From sequence record OP172784: a DNA stretch of 64,000 nucleotides. One strand, written 5' to 3'. Both the position numbers and the translations under genes were made by a program. This DNA is from Escherichia phage ECO07P1. Shown in pieces: positions 37,129 through 44,591 of this stretch (its first letter is position 1; the number at the start of each line of letters is the position of its first letter). Under the pieces are notes generated by a model, which did no database searches, had not been told where the DNA came from, and saw only the letters and a list, made by a program, of their open reading frames with translations.

Positions 37129-37397
37129 TGTTTGTCGTTCACACTATTTATGAAAATGAAGGTAATACTACGCGTGATTACGGTCACGTAAATCAATTTT
37201 TTAGATGCAATCCAGAATTCCGAGCTCAAAAAGACGAACGAATTTTTAAAAAATGTGTAGAGCAAGGTTTCATTTACGTCAAGCACTGGATGCAAGGAAA
37301 TAAAGTTAGAACTACATATCATAAGTCTTTGACTGAGCTTAATGATGAATTGATTTATAATAGAGCTGTAAACCAAACTTTGAAGGATGAGCAATGA
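37128..37397 (+). CDS. hypothetical protein (30.1 position)
   Basis: Track ORF; stop overlaps gene 30 start. Confidence 0.5.
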   Translation: MFVVHTIYENEGNTTRDYGHVNQFFRCNPEFRAQKDERIFKKCVEQGFIYVKHWMQGNKVRTTYHKSLTELNDELIYNRAVNQTLKDEQ

Positions 37398-38854
37398 TTC
37401 TTAAAATTCTGAACGAAATAGCATCTATTGGTTCAACTAAGCAGAAGCAAGCAATTCTTGAAAAGAATAAAGATAATGAATTGCTTAAACGAGTATATCG
37501 TCTAACTTATTCTCGTGGGTTACAGTATTATATCAAGAAATGGCCTAAACCTGGTATTGCTACCCAGAGTTTTGGAATGCTGACTCTTACAGATATGCTC
37601 GACTTCATTGAATTCACGTTAGCTACTCGGAAATTGACTGGAAATGCTGCAATTGAGGAATTAACTGGATATATCACTGATGGTAAAAAGGATGATGTTG
37701 AAGTTTTGCGTCGAGTTATGATGCGAGACCTTGAATGCGGTGCTTCAGTATCTATTGCAAACAAAGTTTGGCCAGGTTTAATTCCTGAACAACCTCAAAT
37801 GCTGGCAAGTTCTTATGATGAAAAGGGCATTAATAAGAATATCAAATTTCCAGCCTTTGCCCAGTTAAAAGCAGATGGAGCTCGGTGTTTTGCTGAAGTT
37901 AGAGGTGATGAATTAGATGATGTTCGTCTTTTATCACGAGCTGGCAATGAATATCTAGGATTAGATCTTCTTAAGGAAGAGTTAATCAAAATGACTGCTG
38001 AAGCCCGCCAGATTCATCCAGAAGGTGTGTTAATTGATGGCGAATTGGTATACCATGAGCAAGTTAAAAAGGAACCAGAAGGCCTAGATTTTCTTTTTGA
38101 TGCTCCTGAAATTAGTAAAGCTAAAGAATTCGCCGAAGTAGCTGAATCACGTACTGCATCTAATGGCATCGCCAATAAATCTTTAAAGGGAACCATTTCT
38201 GAAAAAGAAGCCAAATGCATGAAGTTTCAGGTCTGGGATTATGTCCCGTTGGTAGAAATATACGGTCTTCCTGCATTTCGTTTGAAATATGATGTACGTT
38301 TTTCTAAACTAGAACAAATGACATCAGGTTATGATAAAGTAATTTTAATTGAAAACCAGGTAGTAAATAACCTAGATGAAGCTAAGGTAATTTACAAAAA
38401 GTATATTGACCAAGGTCTTGAGGGTATTATTCTCAAAAATACCGATGGATTGTGGGAAAATGCTCGTTCAAAAAATCTTTATAAATTTAAAGAAGTAATT
38501 GATGTTGATTTAAAAATTGTAGGAATTTATCCTCACCGTAAAGACCCTACTAAAGCGGGCGGATTTATTCTTGAATCAGAGTGTGGAAAAATTAAGGTAA
38601 ATGCTGGTTCAGGCTTAAAAGATAAAGCTGGCGTAAAATCACATGAACTTGACCGTACTCGCATTATGGAAAACCAAAATTATTATATTGGAAAAATTCT
38701 AGAATGTGAATGCAATGGTTGGTTAAAATCTGACGGCCGCACTGATTACGTTAAATTATTTCTTCCGATTGCGATTCGTTTACGTGAAGATAAAACTAAA
38801 GCTAATACATTCGAGGATGTATTTGGTGATTTTCATGAGGTAACTGGTCTATGA
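37394..38854 (+). CDS. 30: ATP-dependent DNA ligase
   Basis: 486-aa ORF with adenylation motif KADGAR, recognised as T4 DNA ligase. Confidence 0.95.
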   Translation: MILKILNEIASIGSTKQKQAILEKNKDNELLKRVYRLTYSRGLQYYIKKWPKPGIATQSFGMLTLTDMLDFIEFTLATRKLTGNAAIEELTGYITDGKKDDVEVLRRVMMRDLECGASVSIANKVWPGLIPEQPQMLASSYDEKGINKNIKFPAFAQLKADGARCFAEVRGDELDDVRLLSRAGNEYLGLDLLKEELIKMTAEARQIHPEGVLIDGELVYHEQVKKEPEGLDFLFDAPEISKAKEFAEVAESRTASNGIANKSLKGTISEKEAKCMKFQVWDYVPLVEIYGLPAFRLKYDVRFSKLEQMTSGYDKVILIENQVVNNLDEAKVIYKKYIDQGLEGIILKNTDGLWENARSKNLYKFKEVIDVDLKIVGIYPHRKDPTKAGGFILESECGKIKVNAGSGLKDKAGVKSHELDRTRIMENQNYYIGKILECECNGWLKSDGRTDYVKLFLPIAIRLREDKTKANTFEDVFGDFHEVTGL

Positions 38855-39039
38855 AAGCTTACTTAGAAACAATTGTCATTGCTCAAAAAGAAGGTGGAGA
38901 TGTTTCTACTTCTGTATCACAAGTCATTCTCGAATTTGTAGATGCATATGCTTATAATAAATTTACAGAAACATTTGATGCCTATGAAAAAGGACCAAAG
39001 TTTGAAATATATCGTACTCTCTTACCACTAGATTACTAA
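38851..39039 (+). CDS. hypothetical protein
   Basis: Track ORF; ATGA overlap with gene 30; hairpin downstream. Confidence 0.45.
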   Translation: MKAYLETIVIAQKEGGDVSTSVSQVILEFVDAYAYNKFTETFDAYEKGPKFEIYRTLLPLDY

Positions 39040-39054
39040 AGGCCTTCGGGCCTT
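39039..39054 (+). terminator. UUCG hairpin after ORF 38851..39039, immediately before the alt late promoter
   Basis: aaggcc-ttcg-ggcctt followed by taatttt. Confidence 0.55.
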
Positions 39055-39060
39055 TAATTT

Positions 39061-39068
39061 TATAAATA
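39061..39068 (+). promoter_or_regulatory. late promoter for alt copy 1
   Basis: tataaata 24 nt upstream of alt ATG; SD gagagg follows. Confidence 0.7.
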
Positions 39069-39091
39069 GAATAAACACTAGAGAGGCTATG

Positions 39092-41185
39092 ATGGAACTT
39101 ATTACAGAATTATTTGACGAAGATACTACTCTTCCGATTACAAACTTAAATCCAAAGAAGAAAATACCGCAAATTTTTTCAGTTCATGTTGATGACGCAA
39201 TTGAACAACCAGGCTTTCGTTTATGTACCTATACATCTGGAGGTGATACTAATCGCGATTTAAAAATGGGCGATAAAATGATGCATATTGTTCCTTTTAC
39301 ATTAACTGCTAAAGGTTCAATTGCTAAATTAAAAGGTCTCGGTCCAAGCCCAATTAATTATATCAATTCAGTTTTTACTGTTGCAATGCAGACGATGCGT
39401 CAGTATAAAATTGATGCCTGTATGCTCCGTATTCTTAAGTCTAAAACTGCTGGTCAAGCTCGACAAATTCAAGTTATTGCTGATAGACTTATCCGTAGTC
39501 GTTCGGGTGGCAGATACGTCCTTCTTAAGGAACTCTGGGATTACGATAAAAAGTATGCATATATTCTTATACATCGCAAAAATGTATCACTAGAAGACAT
39601 TCCAGGAGTTCCGGAAATTAGCACCGAGCTCTTTACTAAAGTTGAATCGAAGGTCGGTGATGTTTATATCAATAAAGATACTGGAGCTCAAGTAACTAAA
39701 AATGAGGCAATTGCTGCATCTATTGCGCAAGAAAATGATAAACGTTCTGACCAAGCTGTAATCGTTAAAGTTAAAATTTCCCGTAGAGCAATTGCACAAA
39801 GTCAATCATTAGAATCTTCTAGATTTGAAAGCGAATTATTCCAGAAGTATGAATCTACCGCAGCTAATTTCAATAAACCTGCTACCGCTCCTTTAATTCC
39901 CGAAGCAGAAGAAATGAAACTTGGAATTAATTCATTGGCTTCTAAAACTAAGGCAGCAAAAATTATTGCTGAAGGAACTGCAGATGAACTTCACTATGAT
40001 TATAAATTCTTTTCAAAAAGTGAGGTTAATGAAGTTTCTGAAAAAATTAAAGATGTAATTTTTAACGCGATCAAAAATGAACCGACTACTTCAATAAAAT
40101 GTTTAGAGAAGTATGCAGCAGCTATTAATAAATTCTTTGAAGAATATAAAGATACTTGGCTTGATAAACATAATAAAACCCGTAAAGGACAGCCAGATGA
40201 AGTCTGGGAAGAAATAACTAAAAATTCCTGGAACGCAGCAAAAACTAAATTCCTCAAACGAATGATTTATAGCTTTTCTGGAATTGGTGCAGGTCCAATG
40301 ATTGATATTACTATTGCCCGTGATGGTTCTAAATATACTCCATCACAAAAGCGCGGCATTAGAGAGTATTGTGGTTCAGGATATACTGACATCAATAATC
40401 TTCTTTTAGGACGCTACAATCCAGAACGATATGATGTAATGAGTGAAAAAGAAATTGAATCTGCTATAAATAACTTAGATTCAGCTTTTGAAAATGGTGA
40501 CCGTATACCGGAAGGCATTACAGTTTATCGTGCACAAAGTATGACTGCTCCTATATACGAAGCACTAGTTAAAAATAAAGTGTTCTATTTCAGAAATTTT
40601 GTATCTACTTCTTTAACTCCTATCATTTTTGGGCGTTTTGGAATTACACATGCTGGTATTGGTCTTTTAGAACCAGAAGCTCGTAATGAATTAACAGTTG
40701 ATAAAAATGAAGAAGGAATAACTATTAATCCAAACGAAATAAGAGCGTATAAAGAAAATCCTGAATACGTTAAAGTTCAAATAGGATGGGCAATTGATGG
40801 AGCTCATAAAGTTAATGTTGTATATCCAGGAAGTCTCGGAATAGCAACAGAAGCTGAAGTTATTCTACCACGCGGATTGATGGTCAAAGTTAATAAAATA
40901 ACTGATGCTTCTAATAACGACGGAACAACATCTAATAATACAAAACTCATTCAAGCTGAAGTTATGACTACGGAAGAACTCACCGAATCAGTCATTTATG
41001 ACGGTGACCGTCTAATGGAAACTGGTGAAGTAGTTGCAATGACAGGTGATATTGAAATAGAAGACAGAGTTGACTTTGCATCATTTGTTTCATCAAATGT
41101 TAAACAAAAAGTAGAATCATCTCTTGGAATTATTGCGTCTTGCATAGATATTACAAACATGCCTTACAAGTTCGTTCAAGGATAA
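39092..41185 (+). CDS. alt: Alt ADP-ribosyltransferase (packaged head protein), copy 1
   Basis: ~697 aa; N-terminal MELITE (L/I-x-E protease-site-like); R...STS...E signature (VYRAQ, FVSTSL, EAEVILPRG); late promoter directly upstream. Confidence 0.8.
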   Translation: MELITELFDEDTTLPITNLNPKKKIPQIFSVHVDDAIEQPGFRLCTYTSGGDTNRDLKMGDKMMHIVPFTLTAKGSIAKLKGLGPSPINYINSVFTVAMQTMRQYKIDACMLRILKSKTAGQARQIQVIADRLIRSRSGGRYVLLKELWDYDKKYAYILIHRKNVSLEDIPGVPEISTELFTKVESKVGDVYINKDTGAQVTKNEAIAASIAQENDKRSDQAVIVKVKISRRAIAQSQSLESSRFESELFQKYESTAANFNKPATAPLIPEAEEMKLGINSLASKTKAAKIIAEGTADELHYDYKFFSKSEVNEVSEKIKDVIFNAIKNEPTTSIKCLEKYAAAINKFFEEYKDTWLDKHNKTRKGQPDEVWEEITKNSWNAAKTKFLKRMIYSFSGIGAGPMIDITIARDGSKYTPSQKRGIREYCGSGYTDINNLLLGRYNPERYDVMSEKEIESAINNLDSAFENGDRIPEGITVYRAQSMTAPIYEALVKNKVFYFRNFVSTSLTPIIFGRFGITHAGIGLLEPEARNELTVDKNEEGITINPNEIRAYKENPEYVKVQIGWAIDGAHKVNVVYPGSLGIATEAEVILPRGLMVKVNKITDASNNDGTTSNNTKLIQAEVMTTEELTESVIYDGDRLMETGEVVAMTGDIEIEDRVDFASFVSSNVKQKVESSLGIIASCIDITNMPYKFVQG

Positions 41186-41188
41186 ATC

Positions 41189-43246
41189 ATGGAACTTATT
41201 ACAGAATTATTTGACGGCGCTTCGGCGCCGGTTGTTAACTTAAATCCTAAGCATAAAATACCTCAAATTTTCGCTATTCAAGCCGGTGAAGAAAGTGTGC
41301 TTCCTGGATTTAGATTTTGTACATACACCTCTGGCGGTGATACAAATAAAAACGTTAAGCCAGGCGATAAAATGATGCATATCGTAATGATAGGTGTTAA
41401 TGAGAAATTATCATTAGTTAAACTTAAAAACTTGGGTGGAAATCCAATTGGTGTTATTAATGCGGTTTTTGATACTGCTCTTCAAACAATGAAACAGTAT
41501 AAAATTGACGCATGCCTATTCCGCGTACTAAAAAGTAAAACAAATGGCGCAGCTCGTCAAATGCAAGTTATTGCTGACCGTTTAGTACGTACTAAAGGAG
41601 CAGGTCGATATGTTCTTTTAAAGGAAATCTGGGATTATGATAAAAAGTATGCATATATTATGGTTTACCGTAAAAATGCCAATTTAGAAGACATTCCAGG
41701 TGTACCTCCTATTTCAACTGAGTTATTCACAAAAGTTGAATCAAAGGTTGGTGATGTTTATGTAGATGTTAAAACAGGTAATGCTGTTCCTAAAGCTGTT
41801 GCTGTTGCTGCTTCTATTGCTTTAGAAAATGATAAGCGCACGGATCAAGCTGTTATTCAGAAAACTAAAATTAGTCGTCGATTAGCAGCGCAAGCTCAAT
41901 ATTCTACTGTAGATGCTTCGCTTCAGGGTGATAGCTTCGCTGCCAAGAAATATCAAGAGTTTGAATCTAAAGTTCCGGTATATAAAGCAGAAGGACCAAT
42001 GAACTCTGGCGTTATTCAGATTGGTTCAAACTTCAGCAAAGGAGCTATCGGTGGTATGAGAAGTGCTTCTCGTTTTAAATCTAGCGATTATGAACTAGAA
42101 AACTTCCGAAATCATATTGCATTGGCTCATGCGCGTTTACGTGATCCATCTATCAAGTTACAGAGCGATATAACATATCAAGGTTCTCAGGAATATTTAA
42201 AGAATAAAGAATTTTTTGATTATAAAACTGATAAAATTTTAAGCGATCTTGCTGACATTAATATTTCTAATAGCTTTGATGTTATTAAGAAAATCGTCAA
42301 TGATTTAGTTAAAGGTTCTAAAGCCACGCCAGACGAAAAGATAGCTATTGTTCAATTTGTCATGAATGGCATTTATAAATTGATTAATGAGTCTGCTTCT
42401 CAAGCGTATGAATATGCAAGTACCGAAGTACCCCCAAAAGGATTAACTCAGGCTGAGTCTGATGTAATTGAAGATTATTGTGCAGATTCATATGTTGAAA
42501 TGAACTCGTTCCTCTTGGGTAAACCAGATTCTACCCGTGAAGAATACATGGAACGAGCTATTAAACACATCGAGACGCTGGATTCTGCATTCGCCAAAGG
42601 ATCAGTTCTTCCTCCAGGAACTACGCTTTATCGTGGACAAGAAGTTACTTTTAAAACTTTACGCCATAATATTGAAAATAAAATGTTCTATTTCAAGAAC
42701 TTCGTATCAACATCGCTTAAACCAAATATCTTCGGTGAGTATGGTAAAAACTATATGGCCCTAGATGATTCTGGTGCAGTATTTTCTGGTGAAGGAGAAG
42801 GTTCAGTTGATGCTGAAGATTTAATGCATATGGGCAGTCACTCTGCTTACGCGAATGAAGATGCTGAAACTAGCGTGGGTATGGTAATTAAAGGGGCTGA
42901 GCGAATCAAAGTTATCGTTCCAGGTCATTTATCAGGATTTCCATCAGAAGCTGAAGTTATTCTACCGCGCGGAATTTTACTGAAGATTAATAAAGTAAGT
43001 ACGTACTTTATGAAAGAAACTGCTTATAACAAGTATCTAATAGAAGGTACAATCGTTCCTCCTTCTGAACAATTAGAGGAATCGGTATATGATGGCGACC
43101 ATCTAATGGAAACTGGCGAAGTTCGTCCAATGGCTGGATTTAATCAATTCCTTGTAGAAGAATCAAAAGAAGAGGAAAACGAAGTTTCTCAAATCTTAGC
43201 TTCTTTGGTTAACATTAACGGAATGTCTAAAAAGTTCAAAATGTAG
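41189..43246 (+). CDS. Alt-like ADP-ribosyltransferase paralog, copy 2
   Basis: 685 aa; same N-terminal MELITELFD, same signature (LYRGQ, FVSTSL, EAEVILPRG), conserved C-terminal ESVYDGDHLMETGEV; central ~200 aa divergent. Confidence 0.75.
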   Translation: MELITELFDGASAPVVNLNPKHKIPQIFAIQAGEESVLPGFRFCTYTSGGDTNKNVKPGDKMMHIVMIGVNEKLSLVKLKNLGGNPIGVINAVFDTALQTMKQYKIDACLFRVLKSKTNGAARQMQVIADRLVRTKGAGRYVLLKEIWDYDKKYAYIMVYRKNANLEDIPGVPPISTELFTKVESKVGDVYVDVKTGNAVPKAVAVAASIALENDKRTDQAVIQKTKISRRLAAQAQYSTVDASLQGDSFAAKKYQEFESKVPVYKAEGPMNSGVIQIGSNFSKGAIGGMRSASRFKSSDYELENFRNHIALAHARLRDPSIKLQSDITYQGSQEYLKNKEFFDYKTDKILSDLADINISNSFDVIKKIVNDLVKGSKATPDEKIAIVQFVMNGIYKLINESASQAYEYASTEVPPKGLTQAESDVIEDYCADSYVEMNSFLLGKPDSTREEYMERAIKHIETLDSAFAKGSVLPPGTTLYRGQEVTFKTLRHNIENKMFYFKNFVSTSLKPNIFGEYGKNYMALDDSGAVFSGEGEGSVDAEDLMHMGSHSAYANEDAETSVGMVIKGAERIKVIVPGHLSGFPSEAEVILPRGILLKINKVSTYFMKETAYNKYLIEGTIVPPSEQLEESVYDGDHLMETGEVRPMAGFNQFLVEESKEEENEVSQILASLVNINGMSKKFKM

Positions 43247-43300
43247 TTTACAAGTTCCTCATGTTGTGTTATAGTAGTCTTACTGACATAACATGAGGAA
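43246..43300 (+). promoter_or_regulatory. early promoter inside a long inverted repeat (cassette copy 2, near-identical to 28345..28398)
   Basis: GTTTAC 43246-43251, -10 tatagt; perfect 11-bp arms ttcctcatgtt (43255-43265) / aacatgaggaa (43290-43300); SD gagga in 3' arm. Confidence 0.6.
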
Positions 43301-43306
43301 CACAAA

Positions 43307-43597
43307 ATGAAATCTTCTTTGCGCTTTTTAGGTCAAGAACTTGTAGTTGAAGGCGTTATTCCTGCTGATAACGCTTTTAATGAAGCAGTTTACGATGAAT
43401 TTATCAAAATTTTTGGAACAGATAAAAAGTTCGGAATTTTTCCTTCTGAAAATTTTTCAAAGCCAGAACAGACTGAAAGTATTTTTCAGGGTGTGGTAAC
43501 AGGTAAATTTGAGTCAGAAGCTCCGGTAAAAATTGAAGTTTATATTGAAGACAGTTTAGTTGCTTCAGTTGCTGCTTTCATTTCATTCCGTAAATAA
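43307..43597 (+). CDS. hypothetical 96-aa protein with its own early promoter
   Basis: Track ORF; SD gagga within promoter-palindrome cassette. Confidence 0.5.
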   Translation: MKSSLRFLGQELVVEGVIPADNAFNEAVYDEFIKIFGTDKKFGIFPSENFSKPEQTESIFQGVVTGKFESEAPVKIEVYIEDSLVASVAAFISFRK

Positions 43598-43603
43598 AAA
43601 CAT

Positions 43604-43621
43604 GGGGACCGAAAGGTCCCC
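43604..43621. terminator. bidirectional terminator between convergent ORF 43307..43597 and gene 54
   Basis: ggggacc-gaaa-ggtcccc flanked by A/T runs on both sides. Confidence 0.65.
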
Positions 43622-43625
43622 ATTG

Positions 43626-44591
43626 TTATATTGCTCCTAATATTTTACTCTGCGAATTGACAATCCCTGTCATAGTATTAATGTTTGAAATGCTTCCTGC
43701 AGTTCCACCTAATCTACTAAGTCGTGAAAGCGAACTAGATAGTTCAGTAACACCTCCATTATTTCCAGAAGAGCTTTGAATACCATTTATAGCAGCAGAT
43801 TCAAGCCATTCAAGCGCAGCTTGTCTATCAACTGCTCCAGCCTGCATGACTCTATACGCAAAAGTAACATCAAATGTAGTTATTTGGTTATCTCCATCAT
43901 ATGATAACTCAGGAGCGCTCACTGACACTGGAATGCATCCGGTGAACATCACCGCAGTATGAGGCAATCCATTGCGAGAATGAAGATTAACTTGGATATC
44001 CGCCTCGACATCTTGCGGCAGAGCACGTAATCCAGTTACTGGGTCTTGAACAGCATTGACCCAGTCTTGCATTGCACGATAATTACACGACTCTGAATCC
44101 ATTCTAAATGAAATAACCAAAGGGTCTAATTCTCTCCCGGTTATGCGAATATTAGGAGAATTATAGTTCCAGTCAGTTTCATAAGATAATCTATTCTCTG
44201 GCATTTTTACAGAGTATATCATCAATCCAGATGAGTTATATGCCATGTTAAAGAAGTCAATTAAATATGTACCAACTGTAAATGAGCCTAATAAACTTTG
44301 AACTGTACGTTGACTCATTGCACCAATTAGATATTTACTGACTCCTGATTTTCTTGTCAGTTTTTGTGTTCCAGCAGTAATTAACGTTGTAATTCCCTGA
44401 TTAATATCGCCTTGGGTTAATCCTAACCAATCTGAATTTAGACCCAAGTTATTATAAGAAAAGTTGCTAATTGAACTTATCAACGAAGAGCTTTTAGTTG
44501 ATGGAGTTGTCGCAAAAACGCAGCTAAACATATTATTACGTTGAAAATCTGCGTTTATTGCTTGATTATTAAATTCCTCTAAAGAATACAT
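43626..44591 (-). CDS. 54: gp54 baseplate tail-tube initiator
   Basis: 321-aa ORF; gene order 54-48-29 as in T4. Confidence 0.8.
   Translation of the reverse strand: MYSLEEFNNQAINADFQRNNMFSCVFATTPSTKSSSLISSISNFSYNNLGLNSDWLGLTQGDINQGITTLITAGTQKLTRKSGVSKYLIGAMSQRTVQSLLGSFTVGTYLIDFFNMAYNSSGLMIYSVKMPENRLSYETDWNYNSPNIRITGRELDPLVISFRMDSESCNYRAMQDWVNAVQDPVTGLRALPQDVEADIQVNLHSRNGLPHTAVMFTGCIPVSVSAPELSYDGDNQITTFDVTFAYRVMQAGAVDRQAALEWLESAAINGIQSSSGNNGGVTELSSSLSRLSRLGGTAGSISNINTMTGIVNSQSKILGAI

Follow-up and report, generated by a model that had tools for sequence, protein, structure and literature searches.

The Alt protein of phage T4, which large surveys of phage ADP-ribosyltransferases take as their only prototype (PMC9503650, PMC5512222), ADP-ribosylates Arg265 of the RNA polymerase alpha subunit, a modification known for T4 Alt only (PMC2988021). 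It is cut by the prohead protease gp21 at ITE-6 and LTE-619 to give a mature protein of 68.2 kDa, as determined by mass spectrometry (PMC5694885), and the mature mass computed from the T4 sequence is also 68.2 kDa. The T4 GenBank record already attributes alt.-1 and alt.-2 to an old duplication that involved the beginning of alt; Nolan et al. (2006) reported these two genes together with a full-length duplicate in phage 44RR (PMC1524935), and Jin et al. (2014) reported alt duplications in Ac42, JS98 and Bp7 (PMC4177764). In RefSeq, both genes are annotated as Alt-like RNA polymerase ADP-ribosyltransferase in many genomes. Here we analyse a tandem pair of Alt-type genes, which we name alt (copy 1) and altB (copy 2), in Escherichia phage ECO07P1; it lies within a stretch of 64,000 nucleotides (nt) of sequence record OP172784 that we refer to as the window.

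An earlier reading of the window from its letters, referred to below as the original prediction, implied that such a pair was novel. This was overstated, as the pair is already known at the level of annotation from the sources above and from the JS98 alta/altb and RB32 records. Its statement that only one Alt enzyme has been characterised biochemically agrees with our search, since in the searched literature we found neither experimental or biochemical work on a second Alt paralogue nor a characterised equivalent of altB. What the present analysis adds is the assignment of the copies, the mechanism of the deletion in T4, counts showing that T4 is atypical, the recognition of a conserved C-terminal block as the gp21 propeptide boundary, selection data, and natural single-gene variants as possible controls.

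The second Alt-type gene and its remnant in T4

Two open reading frames lie in tandem on the plus strand, as had been predicted, and their products share the start MELITELFD: alt (39092-41185) encodes 697 amino acids (aa) and altB (41189-43246) encodes 685. Both proteins match phrog_802, the family of Alt-like ADP-ribosyltransferases, end to end (positions 2-674 of 674; 3e-272 for Alt and 2e-255 for AltB). The product of alt is the orthologue of T4 Alt, and altB is a second Alt paralogue which, as judged from its sequence, is the full-length form of what T4 keeps as alt.-1 and alt.-2. The peptides encoded by these two T4 genes match AltB residues 1-117 almost exactly, and T4 DNA is about 96% identical to altB nt 1-348, the T4 stub being 348 nt long. 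Furthermore, the families of the alt.-1 and alt.-2 peptides, phrog_23015 and phrog_15247, match AltB at 2e-40 and 3e-38 and Alt at about 1e-21 and 2e-19, respectively. The T4 gene carries two lesions. A 1-nt deletion in an A-run causes the frameshift that splits alt.-1 from alt.-2, and a 1,699-bp deletion has ends that coincide with a 9-bp direct repeat, CTAAAAAGT, which is found on the plus strand of the window at 41528-41536 (left end of the T4 deletion) and at 43227-43235 (right end). A 111-nt probe spanning this T4-type deletion junction finds a match over its full length in 91 records.

The AltB centre and ADP-ribosyltransferase (ART) domain are found at full length and with at least 95% protein identity in about 400 phage records, and at the DNA level 401 records cover at least 80% of the altB gene. 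Both T2 and T6 hold a pair of 2,094 nt and 2,058 nt, and T4 is the exception among the classical T-even phages; alt sequences of T2, T4 and T6 were reportedly published by Koch and Rueger in 1994. The next best AltB matches, at about 51-52% identity, come from JS98-type phages. JS98, a Dhakavirus, carries alta and altb at the same position, which indicates that the duplication predates the split of these genera.

Comparison of altB with six Tequatrovirus orthologues, taken from GenBank phage records (a scan of IMG/VR gave 5 loci), yields a ratio of nonsynonymous to synonymous substitution rates (dN/dS) of 0.03-0.04 at dS 0.14-0.27, from which we conclude that the gene is under strong purifying selection. 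The ART domain has the lower ratio, 0.02-0.03, as against 0.06-0.12 for the centre. Because this low ratio is accompanied by the retention of the catalytic residues and of both cleavage motifs, described below, AltB is very probably a functional arginine ADP-ribosyltransferase that is packaged and injected.

Divergent segments, catalytic domain and predicted packaging signals

Alt and AltB of the window are 41% identical in a BLASTP alignment (E 2e-158), a similarity far beyond chance that is distributed very unevenly along the proteins. The N-terminal alpha/beta domain of AltB (aa 1-237; 41189-41899, plus strand) is 68% identical to Alt and is presumed to be a packaging or carrier module; it has structural matches to the N-terminal parts of large uncharacterised phage proteins. 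It is followed by a divergent centre (aa 238-412; 41900-42424, plus strand), predicted to be all-helical, in which identity falls to 20% with 32 gap columns. Within the ART domain, which is 35% identical overall, residues 413-516 are 43% and residues 564-631 are 40% identical, and between them, separating the STS motif from the ExE motif, lies a second divergent block (aa 517-563; 42737-42877, plus strand) with only 9% identity. The C-terminal residues 632-685 are again 43% identical. The original prediction of a largely unrelated central region of about 200 residues is therefore borne out as to the divergence itself, with an extent of about 175 aa; the second divergent block, inside the catalytic domain, had not been listed.

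Profile-profile comparison of the AltB-type and Alt-type centres with hhalign detects no homology between them (probability 0.3%, E 0.2). Each centre matches phrog_802 separately, and the family may simply comprise both types. A phmmer search of the AltB centre against 1.84 billion representative proteins returned a single match, a 1,147-aa protein aligned over 7 short stretches that we read as repeat-driven. The search did not return the family of AltB itself, probably since the representative of the 50% cluster has a different centre.

The first 27 nt of the two genes (39092-39118 and 41189-41215) are identical, as against 68% DNA identity over the N-terminal region as a whole, which suggests either that the start region and propeptide are constrained in their nucleotide sequence or that a very short tract has undergone conversion. 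A recent gene conversion between the N-termini was considered and rejected in view of the 68% DNA identity and of a longest identical run that consists of these first 27 nt.

The ART domain is recognised by Pfam PF03496 in both proteins, with 129 bits (1.7e-37) for Alt and 72 bits (4.7e-20) for AltB at a cut-off of 23.4. In AltB it spans aa 413-631 (42425-43081, plus strand) and is further supported by Foldseek and by a profile match to chain 4xsg (1.8e-7). The predicted R...STS...E arrangement was located in both copies at the expected places. Alt has Y479-R480-A-Q with the catalytic Arg480 at 40529-40531, assigned from motif position and alignment, F503-V-S505-T-S507 with S505-T-S507 at 40604-40612, and E587-A-E589 at 40850-40858, which aligns with E574-M-E576 of T4 Alt. 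AltB has Y481-R482-G-Q with Arg482 at 42632-42634, S507-T-S509 at 42707-42715 and E587-A-E589 at 42947-42955, the last two likewise placed by motif position and alignment (all on the plus strand). Across an alignment of 45 Alt and AltB proteins, R482, S507, S509, E587 and E589 are invariant. None of the catalytic Arg, Ser or Glu positions is missing from AltB, and both copies look catalytically intact, as the original prediction had proposed. In the R-S-E clade the ExE motif is associated with arginine specificity. A mutation of T4 Alt published as E577A abolishes activity (PMC11404850); NP_049811 numbers the ExE motif as E574-M-E576 and has a valine at 577. The published number may be one above the NP_049811 numbering, for example when counted from an upstream in-frame methionine.

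Three positions before the ExE motif, the two lineages differ: the AltB lineage has an aromatic residue, either F (Tequatrovirus) or Y (JS98 AltB), and members of the Alt lineage carry I, P or H. In AltB of the window this residue is Phe584 (42938-42940, plus strand), which aligns with the Tyr ahead of Q-x-E in chain 4xsg. In C3-type enzymes, the loop before ExE/QxE helps substrate recognition.

Comparison at the level of sequence profiles and predicted structures places the domain among C3-like and binary-toxin enzymes. The family profile (alignment A1) reaches PDB chains of C3-like and binary-toxin ARTs by sequence, with the ExE motif aligned to the Q-x-E of 4xsg. A phmmer search of AltB against PDB sequences returned no match, and neither did a search of NCBIfam. 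In an AlphaFold2 (AF2) model of AltB, with a mean predicted local distance difference test score (pLDDT) of 76.9, we observe an alpha/beta N-terminal domain (about aa 12-240), an all-helical part (about 250-470), an ART core (about 480-622), a disordered segment (629-647) and a helical tail. Foldseek matched the ART part of this model to Vis, C3bot, Certhrax, CDTa and Vip2 with E-values of 4e-8 to 4e-5. Target template modelling (TM) scores were about 0.6 when the matched chain had a single domain (C3-like and Vis) and about 0.3 for toxin chains of two domains. The pLDDT of the centre was mostly 80-94 (aa 270-412) and 51-68 (aa 231-250) in the full-length model and below 50 (aa 263-297) in a truncated model.

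Both proteins also carry the signals expected for entry into the head. The L/I-x-E motif of the prohead-protease type that had been noted near the N-terminus is ITE-6 in both, the same as the site mapped in T4: in Alt, I4-T-E6 (39101-39109) is identical to ITE-6 of T4 Alt and marks the end of the capsid-targeting propeptide, and in AltB, I4-T-E6 (41198-41206) is the predicted N-terminal gp21 site, with E6 invariant in alignment A1. At the other end, L630-T-E632 of Alt (40979-40987) has the sequence context of LTE-619 in T4 Alt and is followed by a C-terminal propeptide of 65 aa (40988-41182). The corresponding predicted site of AltB, L629-E-E631 (43073-43081), aligns with LTE-619 and LTE-632 and precedes an acidic C-terminal propeptide of 54 aa (43082-43243; all on the plus strand). 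In the alignment, E6 and E631 do not vary, and conservation of L629 is 90% or higher. The conserved C-terminal ESV-YDGD-LMETGEV block singled out by the original prediction coincides precisely at its start with the C-terminal gp21 site that was mapped in T4 Alt, and hence forms the beginning of the C-terminal propeptide. Mature AltB is predicted to comprise aa 7-631, with a mass of 69.1 kDa. From the presence of both cleavage motifs, we infer that AltB is packaged, processed and injected. In the searched literature, no virion proteomics was found for any phage carrying altB.

Two in-frame ATG codons are present at 39089-39094, allowing a start at either MMELITE or MELITE, and database records vary in the start annotated. 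A review gives the propeptide 7 residues and the primary paper 6, which the dual in-frame ATG may explain.

Probable transcription unit, neighbouring genes and natural variants

The pair is preceded on the plus strand by a terminator-like hairpin with a T-run at the boundary between the alt.1 and alt units (39037-39056) and by the T4-type late-promoter motif TATAAATA at 39061-39068, 24 nt upstream of the alt start codon. A Shine-Dalgarno sequence, GAGAGG (39081-39086, plus strand), lies 2 nt before the first ATG of alt and 5 nt before the second. The alt stop codon is at 41183-41185 and the intergenic spacer is 3 nt (41186-41188), so that altB follows with its own Shine-Dalgarno sequence, AAGGA (41178-41182, plus strand), located within the last codons of alt, just as had been described. 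The junction between the two genes is identical in five other Tequatrovirus loci. No terminator candidate was found between alt and altB, and the first one downstream of the late promoter is a bidirectional terminator-like hairpin between alt.-3 and gene 54 (43602-43623).

The claim that only alt has a late promoter was correct as regards the motif at 39061, but a second plus-strand TATAAATA occurs inside alt at 40465-40472, 720 nt upstream of altB, where it is formed by A-I-N-N codons. This internal motif is probably a chance match in coding sequence, because a synonymous change removes it in a close relative (L003) and T4-type alleles lack it; the idea that it serves altB as a promoter of its own was rejected for lack of conservation. 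With one conserved late promoter, no intervening terminator and a conserved junction, alt and altB are likely co-transcribed.

Directly after the altB stop codon, at 43247-43275, there is a match to a sigma-70/T4-early-like promoter (TTTACA, 17-nt spacer, TATAGT, extended TG), and alt.-3 may have an early promoter of its own besides late read-through.

The gene order, gp30, alt.1, alt, altB and alt.-3, followed by 54, 48 and 29 on the minus strand, matches the T4 alt locus, which is flanked by gene 30/alt.1 and by alt.-3/gene 54 and has a late promoter. DNA ligase gene 30 (gp30; 37394-38854) precedes alt.1 (38851-39039, plus strand), which encodes 62 aa and is identified by Pfam PF24647 (1.9e-29) and by its position as in T4. 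Downstream, alt.-3 (43307-43597, plus strand) encodes a DUF5498 protein of 96 aa and is identified by Pfam PF17602 (1.4e-64) and by synteny with T4. The window belongs to Tequatrovirus; across 38800-43700 it shows 100% identity to Escherichia phage ECO07P3, and hundreds of further Tequatrovirus records match this segment at 97-98%.

Copy 1 itself is a mosaic relative to T4 Alt. The two proteins are about 100% identical over aa 1-240, 13-35% in the centre, 60-73% in the ART domain and about 90% in the C-terminal tail. Over the centre and ART domain together, Alt of the window shares 98% of its residues with the T6 protein and 49% with T4 Alt, and the window thus has the T6-type alt allele. We compared window positions 39806-41011 (Alt aa 239-640) with loci L001 (T4), L011 (HP3) and L004. 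Between T4-type and T6-type alt, the first 240 aa are about 100% identical (dS about 0.1), the tail is about 90% and the centre and ART domain about 49% identical, with dN 0.63 and dS 1.2-1.4 in the centre. This pattern looks as though the effector part, lying between flanks that are conserved, had been exchanged as a cassette. An intact altB adjoins both alt allele types. Within Tequatrovirus, alt has at least 2 deep alleles and altB a single one, which points to different selective regimes for the two genes.

In phage ECML-134 (JX128259; L010, 2601-4661) there is one alt gene, whose first approximately 460 nt are of the alt type and whose remainder is of the altB type, with a clean crossover in the conserved WDYDKKYAY region. 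The hybrid is consistent with unequal crossing-over between tandem paralogues, and it suggests that the N-terminal modules of the two copies are interchangeable. In Tequatrovirus NIC06P2 (OZ035760.1), only the last approximately 170 nt of altB (8%; query nt 1891-2058) are found, beside a T6-type alt. This is an independent deletion of altB, with a junction unlike that of T4.

Possible role of AltB and comparison with known systems

We propose, with a probability of roughly 0.6, that the locus retains the ancestral state of the T-even alt region, with two genes, and that both enzymes are packaged and injected, with the substrate range of AltB overlapping that of Alt only in part. According to this model, alt and altB would be transcribed late as one unit, from the TATAAATA promoter at 39061 to the terminator after alt.-3, and altB would be translated from its own Shine-Dalgarno sequence, 3 nt past the alt stop. 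Each product would consist of four parts: the MELITE propeptide, an alpha/beta N-terminal domain, a helical middle, and a C3/Vip2-type R-S-ExE ART domain with an acidic C-terminal propeptide. Both proteins would enter the prohead core and be trimmed by gp21 after ITE-6 and after LTE-632 (Alt) or LEE-631 (AltB), and the trimmed enzymes would then be injected along with the DNA to carry out NAD-dependent mono-ADP-ribosylation of arginines on proteins of the host. We hypothesise that the substrate range of AltB most likely overlaps only partly with that of Alt. Different targets for the two enzymes are plausible, and would fit the unrelated centres, the second divergent block and the choice of F/Y versus I/P/H at position -3. 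That the main substrates of AltB differ from those of Alt is a more tentative suggestion, which we hold at somewhat less than even odds; candidates would be the other RNA polymerase alpha subunit, which T4 Alt leaves unmodified, translation factors, defence proteins, or the use of NAD-capped RNA as the donor, as with ModB.

Several points weigh against this proposal. Divergent non-catalytic regions need not alter substrate choice, and because T4 Alt is itself a promiscuous enzyme (PMC2988021), the substrates of Alt and AltB could be largely shared. Confidence in the AF2 models is only moderate (mean pLDDT 75-77). altB has been lost in T4, in its relatives and in at least one other lineage, and ECML-134 lacks the body of copy 1; these natural losses of either gene imply that neither enzyme is indispensable under all conditions. 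Moreover, direct evidence for the altB product in virions, or for its cleavage, injection or activity, was found neither here nor in the searched literature.

Among the alternatives, the one we rate highest, though still as unlikely, is that AltB is a redundant duplicate acting on the main target of Alt, Arg265 of RNA polymerase alpha, where it would raise the dose or serve as a backup. The catalytic motifs and the architecture are indeed the same in both copies, T4 and about 90 other records do without altB, and T4 Alt is itself non-essential (PMC9026906). Redundancy of this kind does not sit well with the age of the pair, which is present in Dhakavirus, where the AltB-type protein is already only 49-52% identical, nor with strong purifying selection on both members despite their unrelated centres, which is unexpected for a purely redundant copy; the single altB allele in Tequatrovirus, as opposed to the deeply diverged alt alleles, again points to different selective regimes. 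Slightly less probable still is a role of AltB mainly as a counter-defence effector that ADP-ribosylates host immunity or toxin proteins rather than tuning transcription. In favour of such a role are a reported modification of the MazF toxin by T4 Alt, the loss of altB in T4, a laboratory phage, and in phages closely related to it, and the likelihood that AltB is injected and acts immediately. Other T-even internal proteins are counter-defence factors, IPI for example blocking the GmrSD restriction enzyme (PMC3012670). A gene engaged in an arms race would be expected to vary, yet altB hardly varies (dN/dS 0.03, with protein identity of at least 95% across about 400 records), and none of our results indicates a defence target. 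Finally, the broken remnant in T4 could be taken to mean that AltB has no enzymatic activity and serves as a structural or internal protein of the head, or that the gene is a duplicate in decay. We consider this very improbable in view of an open reading frame that is intact in about 400 records, catalytic residues that are all invariant and a dN/dS of 0.02-0.03 in the ART domain.

If AltB is indeed a second injected enzyme whose main substrates differ from those of Alt, most T-even phages in nature would rely on two pre-made enzymes for the immediate-early take-over of the host, a process under-described by work on T4, which has deleted one of them. Almost all knowledge of injected phage ADP-ribosyltransferases stems from T4, which is here the exception, and if AltB has targets of its own, the first seconds of take-over in most T-even phages include a still unmapped modification. 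Natural controls are available in T4-type phages (alt only), in ECML-134 (a hybrid with the altB body only) and in T2 and T6 (both genes). As the existence of the pair is not new, the value of the analysis lies in a clearly defined, testable gap and not in a discovery.

Set beside the systems described so far, the locus is closest to that of T4 Alt (gpAlt, NP_049811), the head-packaged and injected NAD:arginine mono-ADP-ribosyltransferase of which copy 1 is the orthologue at the same position. AltB resembles T4 Alt in its length class, four-part architecture, R/STS/ExE motifs, both gp21 motifs and its place in the same late transcription unit, and differs from it in an overall identity of only about 41-43%, in the central approximately 175 aa and an ART block of approximately 45 aa without detectable similarity, and in the aromatic residue at -3 from the ExE motif. 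The T4 genes alt.-1 and alt.-2 (NP_049810, NP_049809) are the same gene as altB, but broken in T4 and intact here. Tandem pairs at the same locus are found as alta/altb in JS98, with 'alt.-2' in RB32 and as a double 'alt' in RB51; Tequatrovirus orthologues of AltB are at least 95% identical to it, whereas JS98 AltB is only about 49-52% identical. ModA and ModB of T4 are also phage R-S-E ADP-ribosyltransferases that act on host transcription and translation proteins, but they are about 200 aa long, early, not packaged, and have neither an N-terminal carrier domain nor gp21 sites. Vis, C3bot, Certhrax, CDTa, Vip2 and iota Ia, all of the R-S-E clade, share with AltB the catalytic fold and the R/STS/[E or Q]xE motifs; their sequences are 13-20% identical to it, and they are toxins that bacteria secrete and that have different delivery domains, whereas the AltB domain resides in a phage protein of a type that is presumably packaged in the head.

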